Shown: one piece after another, positions 3,599 through 51,948 of the stretch
Layout: each line of letters starts with the position of its first letter
Position numbering within the stretch: position 1 is the first letter of the stretch
Assembly (NCBI GenBank): GCA_017620205.1
Contig: JAFZQX010000010.1
Coordinates: 5,534 to 69,533, forward strand
Direction: 5' to 3'
DNA length: 64,000 nt
From: Clostridia bacterium
GTDB taxonomy: Bacteria > Bacillota > Clostridia > UMGS1883 > UMGS1540
The notes under the pieces: generated by a model
Seen by the model: the letters and a program-made list of their open reading frames with translations, nothing else
Database searches by the model: none
What the model was told of the DNA's origin: nothing
Made by a program: the position numbers and the translations under genes

Positions 3599-4597
3599 TC
3601 AGCTTAAATTTTCCTTTTCACTTTTTTTGTCGCGGAGCATAAGCTTTAAAACCGCGTCGCGCGGCGGCATTTCTTCAAATAAGATCTCGTACGCCGCGTG
3701 CGTAATCGGCATTGAAACGCCGTATTTTTCCGAAAGCGCATAGGCTATTTCGGTAGCGTAAACGCCTTCGACAACCATCTGAACTTTTTCCTGCGCCTCT
3801 TTGGGCGATATGCCCTGACCGATGAGCAGCCCCGCGCGCCTGTTTCTCGAATGCATACTCGTGCAGGTAACGATAAGGTCGCCAACACCGGAAAGACCGG
3901 AAAACGTGTGCGGATCAGCGCCCATTGATGCGCCGAGACGTGAAATTTCGGCAAGACCGCGCGTCATCAAAGCTGCTTTTGTGTTGTCTCCGAGCCCAAG
4001 CCCGTCCGATATACCCGCGCAGAGCGCTATAACGTTTTTAAGCGCCGCGCCCACTTCAACGCCTATCACATCGTCATTTGTATAAACGCGGAAATAGTCG
4101 TTCATAAACGTGTCCTGAACAAGCTCCGCCGCTTTTTTGTCTTTTGAAGCCGCGACAATAGTTGTAGGGATTTGCCGCGCAACCTCTTCCGCGTGCGAAG
4201 GACCGCTTAAAACAACAACGGGGTTATTAAGGTGCACCGCAATGGCTTCCGAGAGGCGCATAAGACCTGTTTTTTCAAAGCCTTTCGCAACGTTTACGAT
4301 GGGGACGGCAGGGTTTGCAAATCTCTTAAACTGCTCCGCCGTTTTAAAAACCGCGTGCGACGGCACGGCGAATATGTATAAATCCGCGTCTGCAGCGGTT
4401 TGTAAATCGTATGTATAGCTGATATTCTCTGGTAGCTCTATACCGGGGAGACACGCCTTGTTTTCGCGCGCCGCGGCTAAAGAGTCGCTCTCTTCTTTTT
4501 TCCACGACCAAAGCGTTACGGAAAAGCCTTTTTCCGCAAGCAGTTTTGCGATGGCGCAGCCCCAGCTGCCCGAGCCTATAACTGAAATCTTTTTCAT
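3599..4597 (-). CDS. gpsA: NAD(P)H-dependent glycerol-3-phosphate dehydrogenase
   Basis: N-terminal Rossmann motif (ISVIGSGSWGCAIAKLL). 332 aa, with typical GpsA conservation. Confidence 0.85.
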   Translation of the reverse strand: MKKISVIGSGSWGCAIAKLLAEKGFSVTLWSWKKEESDSLAAARENKACLPGIELPENISYTYDLQTAADADLYIFAVPSHAVFKTAEQFKRFANPAVPIVNVAKGFEKTGLMRLSEAIAVHLNNPVVVLSGPSHAEEVARQIPTTIVAASKDKKAAELVQDTFMNDYFRVYTNDDVIGVEVGAALKNVIALCAGISDGLGLGDNTKAALMTRGLAEISRLGASMGADPHTFSGLSGVGDLIVTCTSMHSRNRRAGLLIGQGISPKEAQEKVQMVVEGVYATEIAYALSEKYGVSMPITHAAYEILFEEMPPRDAVLKLMLRDKKSEKENLS

Positions 4598-4603
4598 TTT
4601 GTG

Positions 4604-5215
4604 TTATCCTTCCTTTTTGCTGAAGCTGAGTTTTCTCTCGTTGCCTTCAATAAGTCTCTTTATATTAGCGTGGTGTCTTATTATAACAAGCACCGCAAGG
4701 CATGTCATAAAAATAAGAATTGCACTATTTTCTCTGTTGTAGAAGAAGCATATAATGGGCAGGGAAACTGCGCCGAGTATTGATCCGAGCGATACGTATT
4801 TTGTAAGCGCTATAACCACAACGCCGATTAAAAGCGCCAAAAGCGCAGGAATGGGCTGTAAAACGAGAGCAACCGCAAACGATGTCAAAACACCTTTGCC
4901 GCCGCGAAAACCGTAGTACAGCGGGAAATTGTGTCCCAAAACAGCGCCCGCGCCCGCACATACATCTGCATACGGCACATCTTTAAATATAAGGCGCGCC
5001 AAAAGCACAGATATGACGCCTTTTAATATATCGACAATAAGCGTAACTGCCGCCGCGCCCTTGCCGAGCGAGCGCAGAGTGTTTGTTGTGCCGGCGTTGC
5101 CGCTTCCCATCTCTCTTATATCTTTGCCGCGGCTTTTTGATATGATAATGGAAGCGTTAATACTTCCCAAAAGATAACCCATTAAAGCAGCCAAAACTGC
5201 TAAGAATATTTTCAT
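4604..5215 (-). CDS. plsY: Glycerol-3-phosphate acyltransferase PlsY
   Basis: 203 aa membrane protein with the GSGNAGTTN motif. Its start overlaps the der stop (ATGA). Confidence 0.85.
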   Translation of the reverse strand: MKIFLAVLAALMGYLLGSINASIIISKSRGKDIREMGSGNAGTTNTLRSLGKGAAAVTLIVDILKGVISVLLARLIFKDVPYADVCAGAGAVLGHNFPLYYGFRGGKGVLTSFAVALVLQPIPALLALLIGVVVIALTKYVSLGSILGAVSLPIICFFYNRENSAILIFMTCLAVLVIIRHHANIKRLIEGNERKLSFSKKEG

Positions 5216-6540
5216 TGCTTTTCTCCGTTTCTTTCTCTGATTATAAATCTTACGGGCGTACCCGTGAGCCCGAACGTTTCGCGGATTCTGTTTTCAATGT
5301 AGCGCACATATGAAAAATGCGCAAGCGTCGCGTCGTTTACAAAAAGGATGAAGGTAGGCGGCTTTGTTCCTGCCTGCGTCATATAATAGATTTTAAGGCG
5401 CTTGCCCTTATCGGACGGCGGCTGAACCTTTGCCGTAGCGTCGTTTAAAACGTCGTTTAAAGTGCCCGTTGAAATGCGGCGCGTATTTTGCACATAAACT
5501 TCTTTTACTCTCTCAAACAGATTATCTATTCTCTGGCCCGTTTTGGCGGAGATAAACTCAATGGGCGCGTACTGCATAAAGCTGAGTTTATCGTATACGT
5601 TTCTTTTAAATTCGCCCATTGTTTTTGTGTCTTTTTCTACTGCGTCCCATTTATTAACGGCAACAACAATGCCCTTGCCGCCCTCGTGCGCGTAGCCCGC
5701 GATTTTCGCGTCCTGCTCGCTGACGCCCTCTTCGCCGTCTATCATAATAAGCGCGACGTCGCTTCTCTCAAGAGCCGCCAGAGCGCGGATGACGCTGAAA
5801 CGCTCAATGTTGTCGGTCACCTTGCTTTTGCGGCGTATTCCCGCCGTATCTATGAAAATATACTTTGTCCCGTCTTTTTCAAAATATGAGTCAATAGCGT
5901 CGCGCGTTGTACCCGCTACGCCGCTTACTATCATTCTGTTTTCGCCTAAAATTTTGTTTATAAGAGAGCTTTTGCCTGCGTTCGGCTTTCCTATAACGGC
6001 AACTTTTATATCGCCCTCAGCTGTTTCGTCTTCTCCCTCTTCGGGGAAGTATTTGAAAACCTCGTCAAGCAAATCGCCTACACCCATTCCGTGAATTGAT
6101 GAAACGGGCATGGGCTCGCCTAAACCGAGGTTATAAAATTCGTATAAAGACATCGGCGGCTCACCGGGGGAGTCTACCTTGTTGCATGCTACAACAATAG
6201 GCTTTGAAGCCTTCTGAAGCATTGCGGCAACTTCCATGTCTGACGCCGTCATGCCGTCACGCGAGTCAACAACCAAAACGGTTACGTCGGCTGTGTCTAT
6301 GGCTATCTCCGCCTGCACGCGCATCTCGGCTAAAACCGCGTCGCCGCCCGCGGGCTCAATACCGCCCGTATCGATTATAATAAACTGTCTGCCGTTCCAC
6401 TCCGCGTCTGCGTAAATTCTGTCCCTCGTTATGCCGGGAGTGTCCTCGACAATCGAGATGCGTTTGCCCGCTATTTTATTAAAAAGAGTTGATTTTCCTA
6501 CATTCGGGCGACCTACAATCGCCACAATCGGTTTTGCCAT
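5212..6540 (-). CDS. der: Ribosome-associated GTPase Der (EngA), two GTP-binding domains
   Basis: Two G-domains (GRPNVGKSTLFN and GKPNAGKSSLIN) plus a KH-like C-terminus. Start chosen at the ATG giving MAKPIVAIVG, with RBS AAGGA upstream; the ORF-track start at 6555 is 5 codons longer. Confidence 0.85.
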   Translation of the reverse strand: MAKPIVAIVGRPNVGKSTLFNKIAGKRISIVEDTPGITRDRIYADAEWNGRQFIIIDTGGIEPAGGDAVLAEMRVQAEIAIDTADVTVLVVDSRDGMTASDMEVAAMLQKASKPIVVACNKVDSPGEPPMSLYEFYNLGLGEPMPVSSIHGMGVGDLLDEVFKYFPEEGEDETAEGDIKVAVIGKPNAGKSSLINKILGENRMIVSGVAGTTRDAIDSYFEKDGTKYIFIDTAGIRRKSKVTDNIERFSVIRALAALERSDVALIMIDGEEGVSEQDAKIAGYAHEGGKGIVVAVNKWDAVEKDTKTMGEFKRNVYDKLSFMQYAPIEFISAKTGQRIDNLFERVKEVYVQNTRRISTGTLNDVLNDATAKVQPPSDKGKRLKIYYMTQAGTKPPTFILFVNDATLAHFSYVRYIENRIRETFGLTGTPVRFIIRERNGEKQ

Positions 6541-6551
6541 AATCTGTCCTT

Positions 6552-7847
6552 TCAATCACCTTTGATTTTATCCCATAAATCGTATCCCGAGCAGTCGGTA
6601 ACTATAATATCGGCGCCGAGCGCTTCGCGAACGTTTGTAACCGTGGTGTCGTCTAAAAACGTTTCCGTTCCGTGACGGAGCATAACGCTCGGTATCAAAA
6701 CGCGCCGGCTTTTTATTTTCCCCTTAAGCTGTTTTATAATGTCGCCGCCCGTTATAAGACCTGCAACGGTTATCCTCTCGCCGAAGAAATCGTTGCGCAC
6801 CGTGTGCACCGCTATATCCATATTATTATATCGCGTTTTTGCCATGTTTGCAAGCTTTTTTATCTCATCTCCCGCCGCCATTCCGGTTATAATATCGGCG
6901 GCCGCAGAGCCTTTGGGAGCGCTGTTTAAAGCATCCGAAAATTCATCGTGCATACTGCGTATGAGTCCCACTCCGTTTTCGATTTGGTGATACCCTTCGT
7001 ATTCTTCCTCTGCGGGGATGGGGTATCCCGCCGAAAGATAAAACTCGTCCGCACCGTAAATAAAGCGCGTCCCGAGCTTATTAAGGCAGTCCTTCTGCAT
7101 TTTTAAAATATCGTTTAAAACTGTCTTGCTGTCCTCTTTTTCAAAAGGCTGTGCGCAGTACAGGTTTTCGCGGAATTTCGTTATTCCCATAGGCACAGCC
7201 GAAACGCTTGTGACATAGGGGTAGAGTGACGCAAGATCGCTTACCGTTTTGTAAAACTCCGCACCGTCGTTTACGCCTTTGACGAGAACTATCTGGCAGT
7301 TCATATGTATGTGTCCCGAAGCGAGGCGCCGCATCTGCTCCATTATCCTCTCCGCCTTCGGGTTTTTAAGCATAAACTTGCGCAGACACGGGTTAGTAGT
7401 GTGAACGGATACGTTTATAGGCTCCATGTGCATGCGGATGATTTTATCGAGATCGCTGTCCTTTGCATTTGTCAGCGTTACGTAATTTCCCGTAAGAAAA
7501 GAAAGGCGTGAATCGTCGTCTTTAAAATAGAGGGATTCGCGCATGCCGCGGGGGAGCTGGTCGATAAAGCAGAAAATGCACTTGTTTGCGCAATGCTTTG
7601 CACCGCCGAAAAGCGCGCTTTCGAAAATAACGCCCAGTTCCTCGCCGTACGGATTTTCAATTTCTATTATTTCGCGCTCGCCGCCCGTAATAACTTCAAG
7701 CTCAATTACTTCGCCGCAGAAATAGAATCTCAAATCCAGCTCATCTTCAATTTTATGGCCGTTGCAGGAAACAATTTCGTCTCCCGGCTGAAGACCGAGT
7801 TCCTCGGCAATACTGCCGGGCTCGACAGCCTGAATTTTGTTATTCAC
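6552..7847 (-). CDS. PDZ domain plus DUF512 (radical-SAM-like) protein
   Basis: N-terminal PDZ-like segment (GSIAEELGLQPGDEIVSCNG) and a Cys cluster (CANKCIFCF). This is the conserved position upstream of der in Clostridia. Confidence 0.6.
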   Translation of the reverse strand: MNNKIQAVEPGSIAEELGLQPGDEIVSCNGHKIEDELDLRFYFCGEVIELEVITGGEREIIEIENPYGEELGVIFESALFGGAKHCANKCIFCFIDQLPRGMRESLYFKDDDSRLSFLTGNYVTLTNAKDSDLDKIIRMHMEPINVSVHTTNPCLRKFMLKNPKAERIMEQMRRLASGHIHMNCQIVLVKGVNDGAEFYKTVSDLASLYPYVTSVSAVPMGITKFRENLYCAQPFEKEDSKTVLNDILKMQKDCLNKLGTRFIYGADEFYLSAGYPIPAEEEYEGYHQIENGVGLIRSMHDEFSDALNSAPKGSAAADIITGMAAGDEIKKLANMAKTRYNNMDIAVHTVRNDFFGERITVAGLITGGDIIKQLKGKIKSRRVLIPSVMLRHGTETFLDDTTVTNVREALGADIIVTDCSGYDLWDKIKGD

Positions 7848-21921: not shown

Positions 21922-22680
21922 TTGAACAACATCTTTTATGAAATGATATTTAAGAGAAAGTCGTTTCATATTTTCAGAAATGTCGGAAATGAATCTATAA
22001 GTGAGGACGAACTAAGCGATATACAAAAAGCATATTTAGATTTTACTCCCCTGAATCCCGAAATCAAAACCGCCATTTTCATTGTTCCCGAAAAGCAGAC
22101 TAACTGCAAACGGGGCGGAGAATACTGTATTCTGCTTTACAGCGAAAAGAAAGACGGCTATCTGCAAAACATAGGTTATCTCGGTGAACAACTCGACCTT
22201 TATCTTGTATCCCGAAATATCGGAACGCTCTGGTTCGGAATAGGCAAAACAAAAGAAGAACCATTTGAGGATATGGAGTTCGTTATTATGTTTTCCATCC
22301 GTAAAATCAGTAACGACTCTAAGTACCGTAAGGATATGTTTAAGAGCAAAAGAAAGAGCGTCGAAGAAATATGGGAAGGCGAAGAGATTACAGGTGTGAC
22401 CGATATTGTCAGGTTTGCCCCCAGTGCCTGCAACTCACAGCCTTGGATTGTAAAAAATATTGACGGCAAACTATCTGTTTATAGATACAAAAAACCGGGT
22501 AAAAGAGGAATAATGCCTGCGGATATGGTTTCATACTATAACCGAATTGATATAGGTATCTTTCTTTGCTTTATTGAAATCTGTCTTGAACATATCGGAA
22601 TAAACTATGAAAGAAAGCTTTATTCTGATGATGGCAGAAATAATGAATTAACACTTAATGCAAAGTATAAACTTGCTTGA
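21922..22680 (+). CDS. Nitroreductase-family protein (putative)
   Basis: N-terminal FKRKSFHIFRN resembles the nitroreductase RRS-R-F motif. TTG start 7 nt after GGAGGAGG; an ATG at 21943 is an alternative start. Confidence 0.4.
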   Translation: MNNIFYEMIFKRKSFHIFRNVGNESISEDELSDIQKAYLDFTPLNPEIKTAIFIVPEKQTNCKRGGEYCILLYSEKKDGYLQNIGYLGEQLDLYLVSRNIGTLWFGIGKTKEEPFEDMEFVIMFSIRKISNDSKYRKDMFKSKRKSVEEIWEGEEITGVTDIVRFAPSACNSQPWIVKNIDGKLSVYRYKKPGKRGIMPADMVSYYNRIDIGIFLCFIEICLEHIGINYERKLYSDDGRNNELTLNAKYKLA

Positions 22681-22791
22681 CAAATTCTGATTTGTGAGAT
22701 AAGGGGACGGAGCTGTTGTTTTGGGATTAAGACAACTGAGCCGCCCTCTTGCTTTTTGCAAAGAAAAACGGAGCAAAGCCCATTCCGACGA

Positions 22792-23355
22792 GGCGCGCTG
22801 TAAGGGATAAAGCCGCCTGCGGCGTCTTTCCTGCTCGGCGACCTTAAAAATAGTTAATCGCGAAAAAGTGGTAGCGAGCCAAAGGCGTTATGAGGGCGCT
22901 TGCAACCGAATAGCCGACGTGAGCGTGCTTTTTTGCGAAAGAGGAGGAGCAAGGGATCGGGCGGATGTTTTTATGTAAAGAAAAACGAAGCAAAGCGGAC
23001 TTCGCTCCGACGAGCCTTCGCACCACGCGCCTACAAAACATGCCACAGGCATATTTTGCCGGGCGGCGCGTGCCCCCTCGGTGTTCGAATCCCTTCCACC
23101 GCAAAAAAAAATATACCGCGCATACCGGGTGATATACTCGGGATATTGGCGCGCTGTAAGGGATAAAGTTTTGCTTCGCAAACCTTTCCTGCTCGGCGAC
23201 CGAAAGCCTCGCTTTCAGTACCCGCCTTCGCACCACGCGCCTACAAAACATGCCACAGGCATATTTTGCCGGGCGGCGCGTGCCCTCTCAGGGTTCGAAT
23301 CCCTTCCACCGAAAAAAAATATACCGAGCATATCGGGTGATATACTCGGTATATT
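22792..23355. repeat. Tandem degenerate repeats (one 356-bp unit, then one 208-bp unit), each beginning with the tRNA-Arg 3'-end sequence GGCGCGCTGTAAGGGA and ending with the tRNA-Arg terminator hairpin
   Basis: GGCGCGCTGTAAGGGA occurs at 22792, 23148 and 23356. A roughly 150-bp segment (cttcgcaccacgcgcctacaaaacatgcc...gggtgatatactcgg) is duplicated with a few mismatches. Inside each unit there is a tRNA T-arm-like GGGTTCGAATCCCTTCCACC. Confidence 0.7.
23312..23353 (-). terminator. Rho-independent terminator immediately 3' of tRNA-Arg
   Basis: Minus strand shows hairpin aatataccgag...ctcggtatatt followed by an 8-T run. A second copy lies at about 23104-23147. Confidence 0.6.
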
Positions 23356-23431
23356 GGCGCGCTGTAAGGGATTCGAACCCCTGACCTACTGGTCCGTAGC
23401 CAGTCACTCTATCCAGCTGAGCTAACAGCGC
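23355..23431 (-). tRNA. tRNA-Arg: tRNA-Arg (anticodon ACG), CCA encoded
   Basis: Minus strand reads GCGCTGTTAGCTCAGCTGGATAGAGTGACTGGCTACGGACCAGTAGGTCAGGGGTTCGAATCCCTTACAGCGCGCCA. Anticodon loop CUACGGA. Confidence 0.85.
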
Positions 23432-23512
23432 AAAAAAATCAGCAAAATTTATTATAGCACACTTTGAAACAAAAAGCAAATGTTTTTTAAAAAAATTTTT
23501 ATCCCGTCTTCT

Positions 23513-23546
23513 TTCGACATATTTTTTCAATCATATATGGTATAAT
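23513..23546 (+). promoter_or_regulatory. Putative spoIIE promoter: 0A-box TTCGACA, 22-bp spacer, TGgTATAAT -10
   Basis: TTCGACA at 23513-23519, the complement of the Spo0A box TGTCGAA. Extended -10 atggtataat at 23541-23546. Long-spacer architecture like Spo0A-activated sigma-A promoters. Confidence 0.4.
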
Positions 23547-23579
23547 TTTGGAAAAATATGGAAAAGGAAGGCTGATATT

Positions 23580-25880
23580 TTGGAATTGGGGTTATACGGA
23601 AACAATAAAACGGACGCATATGAGAAAGGCCAAAAAACCGGCATCAAAGAAAAGCTTGCAAAAATAAACTATCTTAAAGCATCATACTTCGTTTTAATGT
23701 TTTTTTCATCGCGCATAATTCTGCCGGGCGGTATTATGCCTTTCGGACTTGCGTTTTTCGCGGCGGAATATCTGGACAGAGCACATGCTTTGCCGACGGT
23801 AATAGTCCTTTCTGCGGCGGCGCTCTCGCCCGAAACCATGCCGGCGGTGTTTAGATGCTGTGTTTCTATTGTCCTTTTTTCCGTTGCGGCAAGGAGATGG
23901 GAGATAGGGAAAGCACCGCTTTCAAAGGGAATTGTAATGAGCATTTGCGCGTTTTTGGCGGGGTTTATTCAAAAGGTCGGCGGGGGAATTTCACTTTATG
24001 ATGTTTCCGTGCTTATATTTGAATCGGGAATATTAATAATTTCCGTATATCTTTTTTCGGGTGCGAAAAGCGTCTTTTTCGGGGGCGGTGATACTAAGTC
24101 TTACGGTGCACAAGATATGATATGCATATCTGCTTTTTTGTCGCTTTCTCTCATAGGTCTGGGTCTGCCGCATGTTTTAGGGTTTGATCCAAACTGCTTT
24201 TTCTGCGCTTTGCTGCTGCTCGCTTTGGCATATAAAAACCCTGCCGCGACAGGCGCTGTTGCGGGGGTTATAATAGGACTTATATATGGGTTTTATGAAG
24301 GCAATATGTCTTTTATACTGAGTGCATTTGCGCTCTCGGCGGTCTTTTGCGGGTTTTTTGGGAAATTCGGCAGGGCGGCTGCGGCGTTGTCTTTTATAAC
24401 TGCATATTCTTTGGCTGCTTATAATTCGCTTTCGCTTTTATCATTTTTACTTATGCTTGAAGCCGTAACGCTTGCTTCACTCACGTTTATTTTACTGCCA
24501 GAAAAAGCGCTCCGGCCGTTTGCTTTTGTAAGCGAAAAAAGGCGTTCGTATGCGGACAAGCTCCGCGAGCTTACGTTTATGGACATAACGGACAGCGCGA
24601 ATGCTATTCATGATGTTGCGGAGATTTTTGAATCTGTTTCCGAAAACCGTCTTTTGGGCACGGAAGCGGCTGTATCGGGCTTTTTTGAAAAAACGGCAAG
24701 GAGGATTTGCGATGACTGTCCGCGCAAAAATACGTGTTGGAGACATGAGTTTCACAGAACGTATACATCGTTTTATGTTCTGCTTCAGCTCTGTGAAAAA
24801 AATGGGCGTGCAAGCCGCGCAGATATTCCCGATGAGCTTTTGACAAAATGTCAAAGGCGCGATAACCTTTGCGATGCGGTAAACAATATGTTTGAAGTAT
24901 ACAAAACGGACAAGCTTTGGGAAAGCCGCGTAAATGATAGCCGAATAATGCTTTCAAAACAGCTTATGTGTATTTCGGACAGGCTCTTAAAAACGGCGGG
25001 GAGAGTTAAATCCCCCGGCGCTTTTGATTCGTTTAAGGAGAGCAGTCTGTCAATGTATCTTTCCGAGCAGGGTATAAAAACAGAACGTATTTATGCGGTA
25101 AACAACCGCATAATTATCATTCTTGATAAGGGTGAAACGGACGCGCTTTTGGTTGACGGCGCAGTATCGCGCTGTCTCGGATATGAATGCCGGACGGTTA
25201 AAAGGCTCGGCAATGTTTTGTATCTTGCCCCTGCGCCGGGACTTAAAATAAAAGTCGGCAAAGCCGCAAAAAACAAAAACGACAATCCCCTAAGCGGCGA
25301 CAGCTCAAGCTGTATGTTTGTTGACGGCAATAAGTATTTTATGGCACTCAGCGACGGCATGGGCAGCGGAGAGCGCGCGGGCAGAGACAGCCGTGCGGCG
25401 GTTACGATAGCTTCTAAGATGCTGGCGGCGGGTTTTGATATAGAAAACACGGTTTCAATGATAAATTCGGTTCTCGTATTAAAATCAGCCGAAACATCTT
25501 TCGCTACGCTTGATATGGCTATAATAGATTTAAAGAGAGGTGTTGCCTCTTTTTATAAATCGGGCGCCGCGGCAAGCTTTATAAAAAGAGGAGAAAACGT
25601 TTTTCCCGTCTCTTCGGCGTCGCTCCCGTCGGGTTCGCTTCCCGGTGCGGATATAGAAAACTCATCCCATAAAATAAAAGAGGGGGACGTAATTTTCATG
25701 GTTTCGGACGGCGTTACAAGTGCGGGCGCAGCACGGATTTCCGAGATTATTTCAAAGATGGACATATCGTCTCCGGATGAAATGGCAATGAAGCTTTTAA
25801 ACAAAGCCGCCGCGCTCGGCGCGAATATTATAAGCGACGACATGACCGTTCTGGCTGCTTCTGTCGGCAAAGCGGGATGA
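23580..25880 (+). CDS. spoIIE: Stage II sporulation protein E (PP2C phosphatase, multi-TM N-terminus)
   Basis: About 10 N-terminal TM helices and a C-terminal PP2C domain (ALSDGMGSGERAG...DDMTVLAASV). TTG start after RBS AAGGAAGG. Confidence 0.8.
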   Translation: MELGLYGNNKTDAYEKGQKTGIKEKLAKINYLKASYFVLMFFSSRIILPGGIMPFGLAFFAAEYLDRAHALPTVIVLSAAALSPETMPAVFRCCVSIVLFSVAARRWEIGKAPLSKGIVMSICAFLAGFIQKVGGGISLYDVSVLIFESGILIISVYLFSGAKSVFFGGGDTKSYGAQDMICISAFLSLSLIGLGLPHVLGFDPNCFFCALLLLALAYKNPAATGAVAGVIIGLIYGFYEGNMSFILSAFALSAVFCGFFGKFGRAAAALSFITAYSLAAYNSLSLLSFLLMLEAVTLASLTFILLPEKALRPFAFVSEKRRSYADKLRELTFMDITDSANAIHDVAEIFESVSENRLLGTEAAVSGFFEKTARRICDDCPRKNTCWRHEFHRTYTSFYVLLQLCEKNGRASRADIPDELLTKCQRRDNLCDAVNNMFEVYKTDKLWESRVNDSRIMLSKQLMCISDRLLKTAGRVKSPGAFDSFKESSLSMYLSEQGIKTERIYAVNNRIIIILDKGETDALLVDGAVSRCLGYECRTVKRLGNVLYLAPAPGLKIKVGKAAKNKNDNPLSGDSSSCMFVDGNKYFMALSDGMGSGERAGRDSRAAVTIASKMLAAGFDIENTVSMINSVLVLKSAETSFATLDMAIIDLKRGVASFYKSGAAASFIKRGENVFPVSSASLPSGSLPGADIENSSHKIKEGDVIFMVSDGVTSAGAARISEIISKMDISSPDEMAMKLLNKAAALGANIISDDMTVLAASVGKAG

Positions 25881-28576: not shown

Positions 28577-29221
28577 TTATAATTCAACAGGAATTTCTTC
28601 GCTGTCGCCTTTAAGCTTATTATAAATCTCTGCGTCTGTCGCGCAAATATAAGGCTGGGTGTAGAGAACATAAACGATACCGAGAGTAATAATACCTAAA
28701 ATGGCCCAACCGAGGAATGATAAGTCAAGCACGAAAGCGTTCCATTTGTTGCCGTTCATCATTTCGCGTGATTTAGTAATCGCTTCTGTGGGCTGCATAT
28801 CGGGGTTATCCGAAAGTATGTATGGCACAAGCCGGTACGAATATGCCTTAACAATGCCGGGGATTATAAAAAGAAGCGACCAAAGCACGGTAAAAAGAGC
28901 TTGTAAAAACAGGGTAAGTACTATGTTGCCGTAGTTTGATTTAAAGCCATAGCCCATTTCGCCGGGTTCGGCGGGAGCAGCGCTGTTTTTCTTAAAGAAG
29001 TGCTGACATCCGAATCTGATAGGGTTAAAGAGGAAAATGCCGAGCAAGCAAGCAATAAGAGATAAACAAATGATTGCGCCGGTGTTTTCATCCGAAACAT
29101 TGAAACGGGAATAAACTCCGCCCGATACGAGCGAGAAAATAAATGCTACCAATACACATTTCCAACGGTTGGCCTTAAAAGCCGCTTTTCCTTTTGCTTT
29201 AAGTTCCTGTCTGTTCCACAT
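28577..29221 (-). CDS. DUF975-family membrane protein
   Basis: 214 aa with 4-5 TM helices and the IIPGIVKAYSYRLVPYILSDNP motif. It is paralogous to the disrupted copy at 32652-33430. Confidence 0.6.
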   Translation of the reverse strand: MWNRQELKAKGKAAFKANRWKCVLVAFIFSLVSGGVYSRFNVSDENTGAIICLSLIACLLGIFLFNPIRFGCQHFFKKNSAAPAEPGEMGYGFKSNYGNIVLTLFLQALFTVLWSLLFIIPGIVKAYSYRLVPYILSDNPDMQPTEAITKSREMMNGNKWNAFVLDLSFLGWAILGIITLGIVYVLYTQPYICATDAEIYNKLKGDSEEIPVEL

Positions 29222-29422: not shown

Positions 29423-29683
29423 ATGAAATTTAAGAAAAGCTTTCTATCAATCATTTTGGCTATAAGTATGGTTTTTTTGCTTTTGCCGTTTACGGCAAGT
29501 GCAGGCTCTCTGCAGGTCTATACGGATATCTATGACCAGATTGTATATTCAGGCGGTACTTATGACATATCCGTAAAGGTTGTCGGCGGAACGGGCCTTC
29601 TGCAATACAGATGGCAGCTTTGCGGATATCAGAAAAGCGGAAAGGACTATTGGTTTTATATAGCAGGCAAGGACTGGCCGTAG
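29423..29683 (+). CDS. Signal-peptide-bearing N-terminal fragment, in frame with the downstream SLH protein ORF
   Basis: MKFKKSFLSIILAISMVFLLLPFTASA signal peptide. It ends at a single TAG at 29681-29683, and the next ORF at 29705 continues in the same frame. Confidence 0.4.
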   Translation: MKFKKSFLSIILAISMVFLLLPFTASAGSLQVYTDIYDQIVYSGGTYDISVKVVGGTGLLQYRWQLCGYQKSGKDYWFYIAGKDWP

Positions 29684-29704
29684 TTCTTCGCGCCGGAGGA
29701 CTCA

Positions 29705-30901
29705 ATGGGAGAGCACCTCTGCATGACAACAAACTGGCTTGACGGCGAGGATAAGGGCAGCGACTGGAACGTTATAAAATTCAGATGCTATGTTTACGAT
29801 GAAAACGGAAACGAAGGCTATTCGCCCGAATATTATATGCACGTCTTTTCAACGGACGCTTTAAAAGCGCGCATTGACGCGGAAAACGCTTTTGAATTTG
29901 AAAGCTGCGAGCCGCAAAACACGGATATCAAAACATCTGCGGGCTACGCCGTTGATTTTACGATGCACCTTAAAGACTTTACAGACTGGATGCATGACAG
30001 CGAGCTTTACGCGCGCCAGTATTTTGAAATAAAAGAAAACGGCATATCGAGCTATATAGACGGCGTTCATTTCTCATATCTCAGAAACGCTCCCGCAAAC
30101 GCGGAAATTATTGAGCATGCAGACCTTTACTGTGGCGATACGCTTATTAAAGAGCTTAAAAAAGAATATAAAGTAACGGTTGAGAAAAAAGAAGAAACAC
30201 AGGCTTCATCATCTCCCGATACTTCCGAAACAGATACCGGGACGGACAAGTATAAGCCCATATATGAGCTTGTAAAGCCGGGAGCCGATTTTTCTGTTGT
30301 CAAACCGATTGAAATTACAAAGCCCATATCGATTGCAGACATTTTTGAGGAGATAGAAAGACCCATAAGCGGAGTTATTTCGTTTGGGGATAAGGATGAA
30401 GAAGAGCTGCCGTTTGAGGACGTTTTAAAAGAGGATTATTTTTATGACGCGGTAAAATGGGCATATACATCTGACCCGAGGATTACGGAGGGCATAGACG
30501 ATAAGCATTTCGGGCCGAAGCGGATTGTAACGCGCGCGCAGGCAATGGCGTTTTTGTGGCGCGCCATGGGAGAGCCGGAGCCTACGTCTAAAACAAACCC
30601 GTTTAAAGACGTAAAGAAAGATGATTATTTCTATAAAGCGGTACTCTGGGCGGTTGAAAAGGGTATAACCGTAGGCACGGACAGCACGCATTTTTCGCCG
30701 GACGACACATGCTCAACGGCGCATATCGTAACCTTCCTGTACCGCACGCTTGAAATAGGCGATGACGGCTATTATGAAGAAGCCGCTTCGTGGGCAAAGG
30801 ATAACGGCTTGCTTGAAAATATAGAAAAGAAGGTATCGCCTTATGTTGCGTGTCCGAGAAGCGATGTAGTTACGTTTTTGTATAGGACTATTGTTAAATA
30901 G
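29705..30901 (+). CDS. S-layer homology (SLH) domain cell-surface protein; C-terminal part of a gene interrupted by an in-frame TAG
   Basis: Three C-terminal SLH repeats (FEDVLKEDYFYDAVKWAY..., FKDVKKDDYFYKAVLWAVEKGIT..., ...DVVTFLYRTIV). No signal peptide of its own. Confidence 0.6.
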   Translation: MGEHLCMTTNWLDGEDKGSDWNVIKFRCYVYDENGNEGYSPEYYMHVFSTDALKARIDAENAFEFESCEPQNTDIKTSAGYAVDFTMHLKDFTDWMHDSELYARQYFEIKENGISSYIDGVHFSYLRNAPANAEIIEHADLYCGDTLIKELKKEYKVTVEKKEETQASSSPDTSETDTGTDKYKPIYELVKPGADFSVVKPIEITKPISIADIFEEIERPISGVISFGDKDEEELPFEDVLKEDYFYDAVKWAYTSDPRITEGIDDKHFGPKRIVTRAQAMAFLWRAMGEPEPTSKTNPFKDVKKDDYFYKAVLWAVEKGITVGTDSTHFSPDDTCSTAHIVTFLYRTLEIGDDGYYEEAASWAKDNGLLENIEKKVSPYVACPRSDVVTFLYRTIVK

Positions 30902-31066
30902 GGATGTAAAAATAGCGCAGACCGCAAAAGGTAAACGTCTTTTGCTACGAACAAACGTCACCTCTCGACGTACCTTATGTACGCCTTCGGGATTCCGTTT
31001 GTCCGTTCTGCATCTATTTTTCCTATCCCTTGTGGTGTTGAACAATGGGGACGCTATTTGTTGTGT

Positions 31067-31093
31067 TGTCAACAGAACCGTCCCCTTGGCAAC
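31067..31093. repeat. Left 27-bp inverted repeat flanking the SWIM gene
   Basis: gttgtcaaCagaaccgtccccttgGcaAc is the reverse complement, with 3 mismatches, of 32242-32268. Confidence 0.6.
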
Positions 31094-31169
31094 AGAAACA
31101 ATTTAAAATAGGGGCATTAGCATAAATAGATAGCAATGTGCCAAGGGAACATTGCTCTTGTCAACCTGA

Positions 31170-31194
31170 TCACTTCCTTGGTAAGGAAGAGGTC
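31170..31194 (+). repeat. 25-nt inverted partial copy of the tRNA-Thr anticodon arm region
   Basis: CACTTCCTTGGTAAGGAAGAGGTCA is identical to the minus-strand tRNA-Thr segment at 32346-32370, but in the opposite orientation. Confidence 0.6.
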
Positions 31195-31206
31195 ATATAT
31201 TCGATT

Positions 31207-31241
31207 AAAAAGGGGACGTATTTTTGTACGTCCCCTTTTTT
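31207..31241. terminator. Bidirectional terminator immediately downstream of the SWIM gene
   Basis: aaaaaggggacgta-ttttt-gtacgtcccctttttt. Confidence 0.65.
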
Positions 31242-32058
31242 AGGATATGCTTATTTTTATATTGTCTTTTTTCAAAACTAAATTAGCAAACACATCTTTG
31301 CTTACTGACGCGAAATAGCCTGTAAATTCGTTTTCGTATTCTTCCCCAATCAAGTCTAAAAGCTCGCAAAGCAGGAGCATCGCGGCAAATTCATGTTTGC
31401 ATGCGCCGCTGCAAAAGCAGGAGCATTTTATGTTGCCTATTTCTCTTGCATCATAATCAAAATTAAATTCAACTTCATAGTTTTCTGTGCCCTGAACTAT
31501 GGCAAAGCCGCGGCTGCCGTCAATGCATATATAAAGTATTCTGTCGTTAATATAGTAATCGTGTCCTCTTTCGGCAACTTCTTTTTTTATATTCATTCCG
31601 CTTAAATCATCGAGAGAAAAACTGCTGGTTTCATCATTTCCTGTCGCGTATTCTTCTTCGTTTTGCGGCGGGATAAACCAGGAGCGCACTTTGTTTGCGG
31701 GGATTACGTTTTCGCCAAAGGAAACCATGTACGAGCCGGCGGAAAACAGATCGCCTTTTACTTTTGTGTCGGCAACAGCGATAACCTTTTTGTAATCCGC
31801 TATCTTTATTTTGAAAGAATAACTGATGTCCATAACATAACCCATATGTCCTTCAAGCTTGCCGTCAACATATACAAGGTCGCCATTTTTTAAATCGAAC
31901 ATATCGTTATAGTAAGTAAAGTGCATATTTCTTGACGGGAAGTAAACTTCTACGACAGATTTGCGGGCTTCGGCTGAAACGGGATTTTCGATAACCGGTG
32001 TTTCATTTGTTCTTTCGTTTTTCAAAAAAGAATTAAAGCCTATAGGATATTTTTTCAT
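31240..32058 (-). CDS. SWIM zinc-finger domain protein
   Basis: C-terminal CSCFCSGACKHEFAAMLL matches the SWIM CxCxnCxH motif. 272 aa. Confidence 0.65.
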   Translation of the reverse strand: MKKYPIGFNSFLKNERTNETPVIENPVSAEARKSVVEVYFPSRNMHFTYYNDMFDLKNGDLVYVDGKLEGHMGYVMDISYSFKIKIADYKKVIAVADTKVKGDLFSAGSYMVSFGENVIPANKVRSWFIPPQNEEEYATGNDETSSFSLDDLSGMNIKKEVAERGHDYYINDRILYICIDGSRGFAIVQGTENYEVEFNFDYDAREIGNIKCSCFCSGACKHEFAAMLLLCELLDLIGEEYENEFTGYFASVSKDVFANLVLKKDNIKISIS

Positions 32059-32241
32059 GAATTATTCCTCCAATCTTTTGTTTCTGTAATCAGTATAGCA
32101 AATTCAGTGGGTAATAAAACGGACTGTGCAGGACGCACACGGATTGTCAGCTTTCAATTTTCAATTTTACATTTAATAAAGAAAAAAGCGTGCGCGCCGA
32201 AGGCGCAAAACCGAAAAAGGTGGCGGAGAGAGTTTTCCGGG

Positions 32242-32268
32242 TGTCAAGGGGACGGTTCTCTTGACAAC
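32242..32268. repeat. Right 27-bp inverted repeat, itself an internal palindrome (TGTCAAG-N11-CTTGACA)
   Basis: tgtcaaggggacggttctcttgacaac. Confidence 0.6.
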
Positions 32269-32280
32269 AATAAAACATAA

Positions 32281-32315
32281 AGAAAAAGAGACATGCAAAA
32301 GCATGTCTCTTTTTC
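32281..32315 (-). terminator. Terminator 3' of tRNA-Thr
   Basis: Perfect 16-bp stem agaaaaagagacatgc-aaaa-gcatgtctctttttct, followed on the minus strand by a T-rich tract. Confidence 0.65.
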
Positions 32316-32391
32316 TGGAGCTGTTGGGCAGATTCGAACTGCTGACCTCTTCCTTACCAAGGAAGTGCTCTGCCTGCTGAGCTACAACAGC
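32316..32391 (-). tRNA. tRNA-Thr: tRNA-Thr (anticodon GGT), CCA encoded
   Basis: Minus strand reads GCTGTTGTAGCTCAGCAGGCAGAGCACTTCCTTGGTAAGGAAGAGGTCAGCAGTTCGAATCTGCCCAACAGCTCCA. Confidence 0.8.
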
Positions 32392-32400
32392 GTAATTATC

Positions 32401-32433
32401 ATGGGACTGTCTGCACTATACTGAGACAGTCCC
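32401..32433 (-). other. Inter-tRNA hairpin (12-bp perfect stem), possible processing or termination structure
   Basis: atgggactgtct-gcactatact-gagacagtcccat. Confidence 0.4.
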
Positions 32434-32439
32434 ATGTTT

Positions 32440-32516
32440 TGGCGACCCGGATGAGGCTCGAACTCACGACCTCCAGCGTGACAGGCTGGCGTTCTAACCA
32501 ACTGAACTACCGGGCC
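32440..32516 (-). tRNA. tRNA-Asp: tRNA-Asp (anticodon GTC), CCA encoded
   Basis: Minus strand reads GGCCCGGTAGTTCAGTTGGTTAGAACGCCAGCCTGTCACGCTGGAGGTCGTGAGTTCGAGCCTCATCCGGGTCGCCA. Confidence 0.85.
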
Positions 32517-32651
32517 ACATATTTATATCAACAAATGATATTATACAATATAAAGAGTATGGTTGTCAATATGTTTTTTCTGTATTCTCTTGATATTTTT
32601 TGCTATTTGGAATATAATGTAGTTAAATAATTCTATTAGGAGCTGATATTA

Positions 32652-33430
32652 ATGTGGAAAAGACGCGAACTTAAGACAAAAGCAAAATCTGCTTTTAAGG
32701 CAAACTATTGGAAGTGCTTTTTTGTCGCTTTTATTATGATGGTTATAGCAAGCGGCACATATCTTACTGCGTTTGTTGACGGGAATCCCCCAAAAGACAA
32801 TGTGAATGTGCCCGAAACCGCTGTGCAGGTTGAACCGGCGGGAGAAGAAAGTATAGATACCTTGCCGGCAGAACTCAGCGCCGCTTTAGCGGAAGAATCC
32901 GCTACAAACGAAGTATCAAACAGAATCAGCATAAGCATGGGCGTTATGGCGCTTTCACTTTTGTTTTCCGTTTTCTTATAAAACATTTTACGGTAAGCTG
33001 CCAGCATTTCTTTAAGAAAAACAGCATATCTCCCGCGGAGCCCGGCGAAATGGGATTTTCTTTTAAAAACAAATACAGCAATATAGTTTTCACTGTATTT
33101 TTAAGAGACCTCTTTATTTTCCTTTGGTCGCTTCTGTTTATAATACCGGGAATTGTTAAGGCGTATTCCTACCGCCTTGTTCCTTACATACTTTCCGATA
33201 ACCCCGGCATAAACGGAGAAGAGGCACTTAAAAAATCAAGCGAGATGATGAAGGGCAACAAATGGAAAACGTTTAAACTTGACTTATCGTTTATCTGGTG
33301 GTTCCTTTTGAGCGTTATAACGCTTGGTATCGTTTATCTGTTTTATGTAAACCCTTATTTTCTTGCAACAGATGCGGAGCTTTACTTAAAGCTTAAAGAG
33401 CTTGATACGCCTGTTGTTTCAGAAGCATAA
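32652..33430 (+). pseudogene. DUF975-family membrane protein gene split by a frameshift near 32960-32985 (two ORFs, 32652-32981 and 33050-33430)
   Basis: The N-terminal ORF (MWKRRELKTKAKSAFKANYWKC...) and the C-terminal ORF (..IIPGIVKAYSYRLVPYILSDNP..) both align to the intact paralog 28577-29221. The frame of the second ORF stays open upstream (..QHFFKKNSISPAEPGE) into the first. There is a roughly 45-aa E/A/P-rich insertion relative to the paralog. Confidence 0.55.
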
Positions 33431-33437
33431 TTGAAAA

Positions 33438-33470
33438 TCAAAAAGAGTTGTGACAAATGTCACAACTCTT
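33438..33470. terminator. Bidirectional terminator
   Basis: agagttgtgaca-aa-tgtcacaactct followed by tttttt. Confidence 0.6.
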
Positions 33471-33481
33471 TTTTATATTGA

Positions 33482-34201
33482 TTAAACTTCCATTCTCTTT
33501 TGCATAACGCGCCTTGCGCTGCTTTCAAACTCGTCGTCAAGCGGTGTTAAAGAAGAAATATCGCCGTATTTGCGCTTTAGCGCCGCCGAAATCATTTCAT
33601 CGGCTATCTTAGGATTCTTTGAGAGAAAAGGCCCGTGCAGATATGTGCAGTAAGTGTTTTTGTAGCGGAGGCCTTCTCCGCCGTCCTCGCCGTTGTTGCC
33701 GAACCCCTTTATAACCTTGCCAAGCGGCTGCATATCGCCTATATACGTTCTGCCGGCGTGGTTTTCAAAGCCTATCGCCGTATAGCCGTCTATATCCGTT
33801 GCTATATTACCTATAAGGCGCGTATCGCCGCCTTCGGTATAGTGATTTAGAATACCGAGACCTTCGAGCTTTTCACCTTCCGGAGTTACATAGTATTTGC
33901 CGAGCATCTGATATCCGCCGCAGATAGCGAGCAAAACGCCGCCCGTTTCGATATACATACGCATATCGCCTATAATTCTGTCTTTAATATCCTGCTCAAC
34001 AACGCTCATCTCAAAGTCCTGACCGCCGCCGAACATAACTATATCCGTATTCTCGCTGTCAAAAGTATCGCCTACGGAGTAGTTTATCACTTTTACGTCA
34101 ATTCCCCTTGCCGCGGCTCGGCTTTTAAGAATAAGTATGTTTCCTATATCTCCGTACATATTTAAAAGTTCGGGATAAAGATGACAAATATTTAGTTCCA
34201 T
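33482..34201 (-). CDS. gatD: Lipid II isoglutaminyl synthase glutaminase subunit (CobB/CobQ-like GATase)
   Basis: Type 1 glutamine amidotransferase with the Cys in LLAICGGYQMLG. Immediately downstream of the Mur-ligase-family gene, the canonical murT-gatD pair. Confidence 0.75.
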   Translation of the reverse strand: MELNICHLYPELLNMYGDIGNILILKSRAAARGIDVKVINYSVGDTFDSENTDIVMFGGGQDFEMSVVEQDIKDRIIGDMRMYIETGGVLLAICGGYQMLGKYYVTPEGEKLEGLGILNHYTEGGDTRLIGNIATDIDGYTAIGFENHAGRTYIGDMQPLGKVIKGFGNNGEDGGEGLRYKNTYCTYLHGPFLSKNPKIADEMISAALKRKYGDISSLTPLDDEFESSARRVMQKRMEV

Positions 34202-51663: not shown

Positions 51664-51948
51664 AACAAAACTCCTCCTGACCTTTACGACTTTTTATATT
51701 ATACTAAAAAAACGCGCATTTGTCAAGTTTTTGGCGTAAAAATATGAATTTAGACAAACGGAGGCTCGGTTTTTTGGATATATTTAATAATTCGACAAAT
51801 AAAAAAGCTTCCGCGCGTGTTTTTATGCGCGGAAGCCGTTGCATACAACTAAAGCCGGATTGTATTTTTAATTCAAAGATGTTTAGTTACTTTCGGGATT
51901 CGGATTGTCCGTTCTGTGCTATATTGAGACATTATTGTCTGTATGATA

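Follow-up and report, generated by a model that had tools for sequence, protein, structure and literature searches.

Do two inverted repeats on either side of a gene make a cassette of it? The question is raised by a 64,000-nucleotide (nt) stretch of a Clostridia bacterium assembly (GCA_017620205.1, contig JAFZQX010000010.1, positions 5,534 to 69,533 of the forward strand; hereafter the window), in which a gene for a 272-amino-acid (aa) protein with a SWIM-like motif lies between two 27-bp inverted repeats next to a tRNA-Asp/tRNA-Thr operon, with an inverted fragment of the tRNA-Thr gene near the left repeat. The original prediction read this arrangement as a transposon-like or invertible cassette, or as a scar of site-specific recombination at a tRNA locus. 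[quoted passage not shown]

Hairpin repeats in the window

The 27-bp inverted repeat proved to be real, with coordinates shifted by 2 nt and 2 mismatches instead of the 3 originally reported. The left copy, GTTGTCAACAGAACCGTCCCCTTGGCA (31065-31091, + strand), and the right copy, GTTGTCAAGAGAACCGTCCCCTTGACA (32242-32268, - strand), match at 25/27 positions in inverted orientation; taken out to 35 nt, the alignment has 86% identity. None of 100 shuffled sequences gave any match, and the blastn-short E value is 5e-8. The right copy is palindromic as predicted (TGTCAAG-N11-CTTGACA), and the partial copies described as scattered around the left repeat also exist, in the form of one decayed copy (31139-31165) and a half copy (about 31036-31062). 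The latter is too decayed to be recovered by a scan allowing up to 7 mismatches, and its assignment is tentative. Two neighbouring intergenic regions therefore hold four hairpin copies, one perfect, one near-perfect, one decayed and one half, as follows:

About 31036..31062, - strand: degenerate half copy of the hairpin repeat (GTTGAACAATGGGGACG...), tentative; seen in the fold of single-stranded DNA and also paired in the RNA fold of the region
31065..31091, + strand: copy A (similar to terminal inverted repeats (TIRs) and REPs), left arm of the inverted repeat; 24/26 to the family consensus
31139..31165, - strand: copy A'', decayed; 20/26 to the consensus, 78% complementary to copy A, oriented like the right copy
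32242..32268, - strand: copy A', right arm of the inverted repeat; 26/26, equal to the family consensus

The half copy and copy A form a head-to-head doublet in the canonical orientation. In the predicted single-stranded DNA fold of 31034-31095 (-15.3 kcal/mol, z -4.1), GGGGACG of one copy pairs with CGTCCCC of the other. Within the 64-kb window the motif was found at this locus only, and 864 kb of related Clostridia contained no copy at up to 5 mismatches, apart from one partial core match at a contig end. Searches beyond these genomes gave no match for 30880-32330 among plasmids and phages (blastn), for the 31-nt motif consensus among plasmids (blastn), or for the degenerate motif among 2.9 million viral contigs.

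The bases immediately outside the two outer copies (...TTGTTGTG on the left and CAATAAAAC... on the right) contain no direct repeat and no target-site duplication. A 12-nt direct repeat further away, ACCGCAAAAGGT at 30921 and ACCGAAAAAGGT at 32210, was rejected as a target duplication, about 0.2-0.4 such matches being expected by chance according to our estimate. A simple inverted segmental duplication was rejected as well: read along the + strand, the repeat precedes the tRNA piece at the left and at the right alike, and the two sides are not mirror images.

In the predicted fold, the first 130 nt past the upstream SLH-domain gene (30902-31030, +) stand apart as a strongly paired domain of their own. 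This stretch has no Rfam match, and its only sequence matches are one of 53 nt at 81% (locus L060) and one of 25 nt at 92% within the window itself (51892-51916).

The hairpin family and its transposase unit

The pattern TTGNCAANAGNANNGTNCCCTTGNCA, in which seven positions were left free, matched at least 120 metagenome contigs. The consensus of the family, (G)TTGTCAAGAGAACCGTCCCCTTGACA(A), is identical to copy A' of the window. Among the matches listed, the free central positions are nearly invariant (A in 127/135, C in 133/135, C in 133/135 and C in 131/135), and for this reason we regard the matches as homologous and not as products of chance. Arm positions 4 and 24 were T-A in 99 of the listed matches, A-T in 16 and C-G in 2, and were complementary in 117/135 (Fisher p = 4e-12). 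To judge from these sequences, the arms covary as those of a stem would.

The family is widespread and follows strict rules of orientation. Matching contigs of at least 2 kb have GC contents from 28 to 61%, and 80 loci among the matches listed come from 50 project prefixes. Two to seven motif copies were present at 75 of the 120 listed loci. Where two copies form a close inverted pair, the pair was canonical in 39 cases and inside-out in 1 (listed metagenome loci). At most listed loci with enough room to judge (64/79), the motif has no transposase gene beside it, and these gene-less copies occur as singles, as tandems and as head-to-head doublets. We found no association with tRNA genes: there were 4 tRNAs in 581 kb, none less than 4 kb from a motif.

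When open reading frames (ORFs) adjoining the motif were clustered, one group of 249-272 aa was dominant, and a Y1 gene of this size adjoins the motif at 22 of the 120 listed loci. Its products match Pfam Y1_Tnp PF01797 (IS200-like) with E values of 1e-16 to 1e-19, and their best NCBIfam match is the REP-associated tyrosine transposase NF047646, at 68.2 and 73.0 bits, short of the cut-off of 80. Among three of these transposases the identity is only 40-47%, yet all three have the same hairpin. The proteins carry NHLH/NHVH (HUH), GHLFQDRYKSE and YVHNNP/YIIQNP, which are signatures of subclass 2.1, and a C-terminal tail resembling a helix-turn-helix (HTH), LSIRQIERLTGVSRGV, into which a weak match to the sigma-70 family TIGR02937 reaches.

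At all 12 loci where both flanks are visible, the unit has the same architecture, with a GGGGACGG-type copy upstream of the transposase gene and a CCGTCCCC-type copy at its 3' end. The upstream copy lies 27-152 nt (mostly 42 nt) before the start codon, its TTGACA placed as a -35 box; the downstream copy usually overlaps the last 17-20 nt of the gene, over the stop codon. The outer pair in the window, A and A', reads CCGTCCCC...GGGGACGG on the + strand and is inside-out with respect to this architecture. The label "MITE/IS-like" (miniature inverted-repeat transposable element/insertion sequence) that the locus had been given is thus apt for the repeats, which are transposon-related and belong to a hairpin family of the MITE/REP kind, but is not supported for a cassette that includes the SWIM-like gene, since the orientation of the outer pair was seen in 0/12 units and 1/40 close pairs.

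Some further arrangements of the motif were observed. Tight tandem arrays occur in L105 (111-220 and flanks, at least 4 copies with a 42-nt period) and in L159 (4409-4478, 2 copies at 44 nt); their spacers resemble each other, and the arrays are unlike the usual doublets. The motif often lies at or over gene 3' ends, as has been reported for the 3'-overlapping repeats of TIRYTs, and mutually unrelated ORFs of L143, L164, L175 and L205 end in the motif-encoded peptide CQGDGS[LIP]DN.

The gene, the tRNA fragment and rival explanations

The segment between the outer repeats had been described as holding only the SWIM-domain gene and its terminator. Both are there, together with a third repeat copy, the tRNA-Thr fragment, the promoter of the gene and about 50 nt of tRNA-Thr flank. 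The features of the locus other than the repeat copies are:

29705-30901, + strand: SLH-domain gene, convergent with the 272-aa SWIM-like gene
31168..31204, + strand (tRNA sense): tRNA-Thr(GGU) fragment, 32/37 match, with tRNA positions 25-49 perfect at 31171-31195
31207..31240, no strand assigned: bidirectional hairpin of the intrinsic-terminator type (AAAAAGGGGACGTA / TACGTCCCCTTTTT), common to the SLH and SWIM-like genes, from the repeat search and RNA fold
31240..32058, - strand: gene for the 272-aa conserved clostridial protein with a SWIM-like motif, from ORF, alignment, domain and structure searches
32074..32130, - strand: promoter/operator region of the SWIM-like gene (CAGTCCGTTTTATTACCCACTGAATTTGCTATACT), 77-88% DNA identity upstream of homologues in >25 distant genomes
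32191..32239, - strand: segment in common with the tRNA-Thr downstream flank of L087, 85% over 48 nt, in the same orientation relative to the tRNA
32193-32207, - strand: terminator-like hairpin inside the L087-shared segment, from the fold/terminator search
32281..32316, - strand: terminator of the tRNA-Asp/tRNA-Thr operon, a 16-bp stem followed by a T run
32316..32391, - strand: tRNA-Thr (GGU), intact, 100% identical to the L087 gene
32440..32516, - strand: tRNA-Asp (GUC), first gene of the operon, with a 12/12 consensus promoter at 32569-32540

With permissive thresholds, Rfam searches of 29500-33500 returned the tRNAs and terminator-driven noise only. The arms of the terminator at 31207-31240 contain the repeat core GGGGACG/CGTCCCC, which may be a coincidence.

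The 272-aa protein belongs to a family of more than 1370 members, mostly of 268-274 aa, with a mean column identity of 74% in an alignment of 24 sequences. The CxCx5CxH motif is conserved in the 24 sequences (C212-x-C214-x-C216-x3-C220-x-H222, in which C212, C216, C220 and H222 are invariant and C214 is nearly so), but its spacer of n = 5 is shorter than usual for SWIM, and Pfam SWIM PF04434 and NCBIfam gave no match even at E 10. An AlphaFold 2 model has a mean predicted local distance difference test (pLDDT) score of 48.5; only residues of about 145-245 reach about 70, and the N-terminal half is low. Foldseek found ZSWIM8 (9rwz_N) as the sole local match (probability 0.97, E 0.099, 92 columns), a weak one on a low-confidence model, and residues 41-83 include a weak KOW-like stretch (ribosomal protein L26, E 0.14). 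As far as this evidence goes, the protein has a SWIM-like motif only, a resemblance at the level of the motif.

Upstream of the gene, the stretch 32074-32130, which lies 15-72 nt before the ATG, is 77-88% identical at the DNA level in more than 25 distant genomes, while the proteins encoded there are only 50-61% identical. The gene has brought its own promoter with it, or has kept it. The conserved part covers about 55 nt (consensus CACTGTCCGTTTTAACACCCACTNAAYTTGNTATAATGA), ends in an extended -10-like TGnTATAAT and precedes the SWIM-like gene in over 25 distant Clostridia (L006-L031, L055, L060 and L077 at about 5920-5973). L021 (1456-1499) and L011 (1439-1476) have second copies of it elsewhere, the one in L021 upstream of an unrelated 385-aa gene, and the stretch looks like the common promoter and operator of a regulon. 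In the relative L009 (4577-6001), the promoter (4577-4629) and the start of the SWIM-like gene (6001) have a gene for an IS-type transposase between them (- strand, 4813-5862; 349 aa), which looks like an insertion that parted the two.

The surroundings of the gene are not conserved: the neighbourhood in the window was shared with 0/80 other genome loci, a tRNA-Thr lay beside the gene at 0/50 other loci scanned for tRNAs, and repeats upstream and downstream exceeded chance at 0/70 homologous loci with enough flank. The closest relative of the protein (P0001, 90% identity) is encoded on a contig of only 1027 nt (GCA_016648615.1). The SLH-domain neighbour, when used as a query for orthologous loci, retrieved multi-domain paralogues only. 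Three orthologous loci (L086, L087 and L088) were found through GatD, and these show synteny to break right after GatD or the tRNAs. In L086 and L087 (81-83% nucleotide identity), GatD is followed directly by the tRNA-Asp/tRNA-Thr operon, and L087 (81%) has a different, convergent gene past tRNA-Thr, with no SWIM-like gene at that place. Window positions of about 32194-32239, between the right repeat and the gene, are 85% identical to the downstream flank of the L087 tRNA-Thr and have the same orientation. From this synteny it follows that the right repeat belongs to the flank of the tRNA, and that the gene unit has its junction further inward. In the comparison with related strains that had been proposed, same-strain contigs are collinear, and the relatives do differ after GatD or the tRNAs, but the edge between presence and absence does not coincide with the right repeat.

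Other variation was seen around the operon. The downstream flank of tRNA-Thr in L087 (6680-6930) contains a different element of about 50 nt (GACAAGTTTCGCTTGCTCCGATTTTTTTRTTCAAAAAATCAGTCACCGC), which is another intergenic repeat family. It is present there as two direct copies, one on each side of the segment that L087 and the window have in common, and a third, partial copy lies near 7560. Next to tRNA-Asp in the window, a DUF975 gene (32652-33430, +) is divided into two ORFs at about 32978, because a T run there has lost 1 nt; a substitution follows 8 nt later. In contrast, same-strain metagenome contigs have it intact (259 aa), and the split copy is either a pseudogene or an assembly error. 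A DUF975 paralogue at 28577-29221 (-) is inverted with respect to this gene (about 74-79% DNA identity over 484 nt), and the pair surrounds a 3.4-kb block comprising the SLH gene, the SWIM-like gene and both tRNAs. Since L086 and L087 have no DUF975 copy between GatD and tRNA-Asp, the whole block is variable between species.

The perfect, inverted 25-nt copy of the tRNA-Thr anticodon-arm region was confirmed with a 1-nt shift (31171-31195, tRNA positions 25-49, E 4e-9). It extends to 37 nt at 86% (31168-31204, tRNA positions 22-60) and lacks the tRNA 3' end. The fragment starts 2 nt past copy A'', stops a few bases before the terminator and is predicted to fold into an anticodon-arm-like hairpin. 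It is a real partial duplicate of the neighbouring gene, and most likely a relic of local rearrangement in a repeat-rich tRNA flank. Partial tRNA copies recur in the window. Downstream of tRNA-Arg(ACG), a unit of about 208 nt is tandemly duplicated (22790-23431, -), with direct copies of the tRNA 3' end at 23164-23147 (18/18) and 22808-22792 (17/17). Past both the tRNA-Arg gene and its first copy comes a terminator hairpin, near-identical in the two places, together with an inverted piece resembling a T arm (at 23291-23305 for the gene and at 23083-23095 for the copy). Within 10 kb of this region no integrase domain was recorded, and a permissive Rfam search of 22400-23600 returned tRNA only.

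Might the SWIM-like gene have been captured between hairpins as a non-autonomous cassette and brought to the tRNA operon through the trans action of a Y1 transposase? The gene does have inverted, transposase-associated repeats on both sides; its neighbourhood is shared with 0/80 other loci and its adjacent tRNA-Thr with 0/50; the 81%-identity relative has the tRNA operon followed by another gene; and the repeats are clustered here and absent from 864 kb of relatives. We nonetheless hold this to be unlikely. The outer copies are oriented inside-out (0/12 units, 1/40 close inverted pairs), the stretch of approximately 50 nt that parts the right repeat from the gene shows synteny with the L087 flank, which puts the junction on the inner side of that repeat, and the promoter of the gene is conserved across genera. 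Moreover, 0/70 homologous loci are flanked by repeats, no direct repeat adjoins the copies, and plasmids, phages and viral contigs gave no match. Recombination between the repeats could alternatively flip the gene, either as a phase-variable switch or in a recent homologous inversion. The inverted repeats (25/27) are 1.15 kb apart, and by coordinate arithmetic, flipping 31092-32241 would bring the fragment into direct orientation about 200 nt downstream of tRNA-Thr and so explain its inversion. We judge such a segment very improbable and do not retain the invertible cassette of the original prediction. Same-strain contigs, of which 7 were read, from five places and several samples, have the arrangement of the window without exception, at 99.94-100% identity; this is weak evidence against inversion, as assemblies show the majority orientation only. 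Among the called genes in about 10 kb on either side, none is recorded with a domain of a recombinase, transposase, integrase or invertase, and 25 bp is very short for RecA-dependent inversion. Inversion was also rejected as the source of the inverted fragment: 32194-32239, between the repeats, is oriented to tRNA-Thr as in L087, which makes the present orientation ancestral for that piece.

Three further explanations concern the fragment itself. It could be the decayed attachment (att) scar of an integrase-type element that used the anticodon-loop region. The identity block begins at tRNA positions 22-25, on the anticodon stem's 5' side, where, as Williams reportedly described in 2002, att sites of the anticodon-loop type begin, and the tRNA-Arg 3'-end repeats (18/18 and 17/17, direct) indicate that fragment scars beside tRNA genes occur in this genome. 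However, the fragment is internal and inverted, has no tRNA 3' end and no direct 3'-end repeat, and no integrase domain is recorded within 10 kb; for these reasons it is not a standard att scar. In addition, a conserved chromosomal gene with its own promoter lies between fragment and tRNA, and the hairpin family, as described above, keeps no company with tRNAs. The recombination scar originally suggested is accordingly unlikely. The 340 nt at 30902-31245 might instead be a structured RNA, a 3' untranslated region of the SLH gene or a small RNA ending at the terminator, with the anticodon-arm copy as a tRNA-Thr mimic. The region has a very stable predicted fold (-125 kcal/mol, z -7.4), the fragment by itself is predicted to form an anticodon-arm hairpin right before an intrinsic terminator, and 25 perfect bases are flanked by clustered mismatches. 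But palindromic repeats and a terminator would make the region stable anyway, Rfam offers no family beyond terminator-driven noise, no homologous sequence was found for a covariation test, and no promoter-like site was found in 30902-31245, so that we give this explanation very little weight. Finally, the fragment lies 2 nt from a hairpin copy and ends at a terminator with the repeat core in its arms, and on these grounds it might be host DNA captured and moved by a TIRYT-type single-strand cut-and-paste activity, the same activity perhaps having placed the gene beside the tRNA operon. We consider this a long shot; if true, the hairpin family would be a means by which genes and fragments are reshuffled on a small scale around tRNA loci.

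Probable orphan hairpins and known systems

The explanation by orphan copies can be put in terms of a mechanism. Elsewhere, the hairpin element serves as the TIR of a single-gene unit for a Y1 (HUH, IS200-like) transposase with an HTH tail. By analogy with IS200/IS605 and the REP-associated transposase of E. coli, this enzyme would bind the hairpin on single-stranded DNA and cut beside it, spreading or rearranging copies in trans. Four copies would have accumulated in the two intergenic regions around an ordinary gene that is conserved by vertical descent and has a conserved promoter and a terminator of its own. As the outer two copies happen to be inverted, the gene has the look of a bracketed cassette.

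Published systems provide a close precedent. TIRtrons, or TIRYTs, are RAYT-like genes between long terminal inverted repeats that share GGGGWSAS; some of these repeats overlap the 3' end of the gene, and they are moderately abundant as singles, dimers and clusters (Di Nocera, De Gregorio & Rocco 2013, PMC3733652). Most TIRYTs correspond to TnpA-Y1 subclass 2.1 and to Bertels' Group 1; in subclass 2.1 the median length is 238 aa, the motifs are NHVH/NH[YF]H, FQ and Y..NP, and the tail is HTH-like (Quentin et al. 2018, PMC6006769). Group 1 RAYTs are the most widely distributed RAYT group and are present in Clostridia, with modestly repeated, low-copy flanking 16-mers (Bertels et al. 2017, PMC5581495).

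Several observations weigh against the orphan-copy explanation or its assignment to this group. Quentin et al. (PMC6006769) report that they found no canonical REPs or REP-like sequences beside subclass 2.1 genes, and the box GGGGACGG fits GGGGWSAS at 7/8 positions, its seventh base being G where the published one is A. The half-sites of a symmetric dimeric DNA-binding protein would covary in the same way as the arms of the hairpin, whose formation on single-stranded DNA we infer. No Y1 homologue is present in the 64-kb window, to which our view of this genome is limited. Three to four copies in 1.2 kb are a striking local cluster that random orphan copies explain incompletely, and a decayed transposase unit or local amplification at the site is possible. 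Likewise, the tRNA-Thr fragment has no mechanistic account, and its 25 perfect bases beside four consecutive mismatches are unlike uniform neutral decay.

For the annotation of the locus, the orphan-copy explanation removes a false lead, in that the SWIM-like gene would not be on a mobile or invertible cassette. Beyond the locus, it ties to the Group 1 RAYTs/TIRYTs a 26-nt hairpin that is nearly unchanged between 28% and 61% GC, with a strict unit architecture and a strong orientation bias in its doublets. The hairpin offers a concrete DNA substrate for probing poorly understood, apparently domesticated Y1 transposases, and a simple pattern with which to annotate orphan repeats in metagenome-assembled genomes.

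In the papers searched, the literal motif sequence turned up in unrelated primer matches only. The family is best placed by comparing its features with those of known elements. MITEs and IS-bounded cassettes also have short, transposase-related inverted repeats flanking a DNA segment. In contrast to these, the window has no target-site duplication, the repeats are oriented opposite to the autonomous unit, the would-be cargo is a chromosomal gene that is conserved and has a promoter of its own, and the boundaries lie off the synteny break. IS200/IS605 elements share the catalytic domain PF01797 and the use of subterminal hairpins as the recognised DNA. The ends of IS200 are, however, not mutual inverted repeats, its transposases are about 150 aa long and have no HTH tail, and it is multi-copy and near-identical within a genome.

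The likeness to the REP/REPIN-RAYT systems of Enterobacteria and Pseudomonas (REPtrons and bacterial interspersed mosaic elements, BIMEs) is greater. There, too, short extragenic palindromes flank a single-copy Y1 transposase in inverted orientation, are dispersed between genes and pair head-to-head into long hairpins; the latter trait is matched here by the 39 canonical pairs against 1 and by the doublet in the window (-15.3 kcal/mol). Unlike REPs, which have 5' GT[AG]G, the consensus and its flanks contain neither GTAG nor GTGG at the foot of the stem, the copy number is apparently low, with none in 864 kb of related genomes, and the transposase falls under the NCBIfam cut-off.

The TIRtron/TIRYT group is where the features agree best with our assignment. 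The window differs from a TIRtron in having orphan copies only, with no transposase gene, and a hairpin repeat with covarying arms that is near-invariant over hosts of 28-61% GC was not found stated in PMC3733652, PMC6006769 or PMC5581495. What the family and the TIRtrons share is a Y1/HUH transposase (about 240-270 aa) that has the FQ and Y..NP motifs and whose C-terminal tail is HTH-like, long TIRs with a GGGG-rich box, the 3' one running over the gene end, and further repeats away from the gene that are low-copy and occur singly, as dimers or in clusters. The group is already known in Clostridia.

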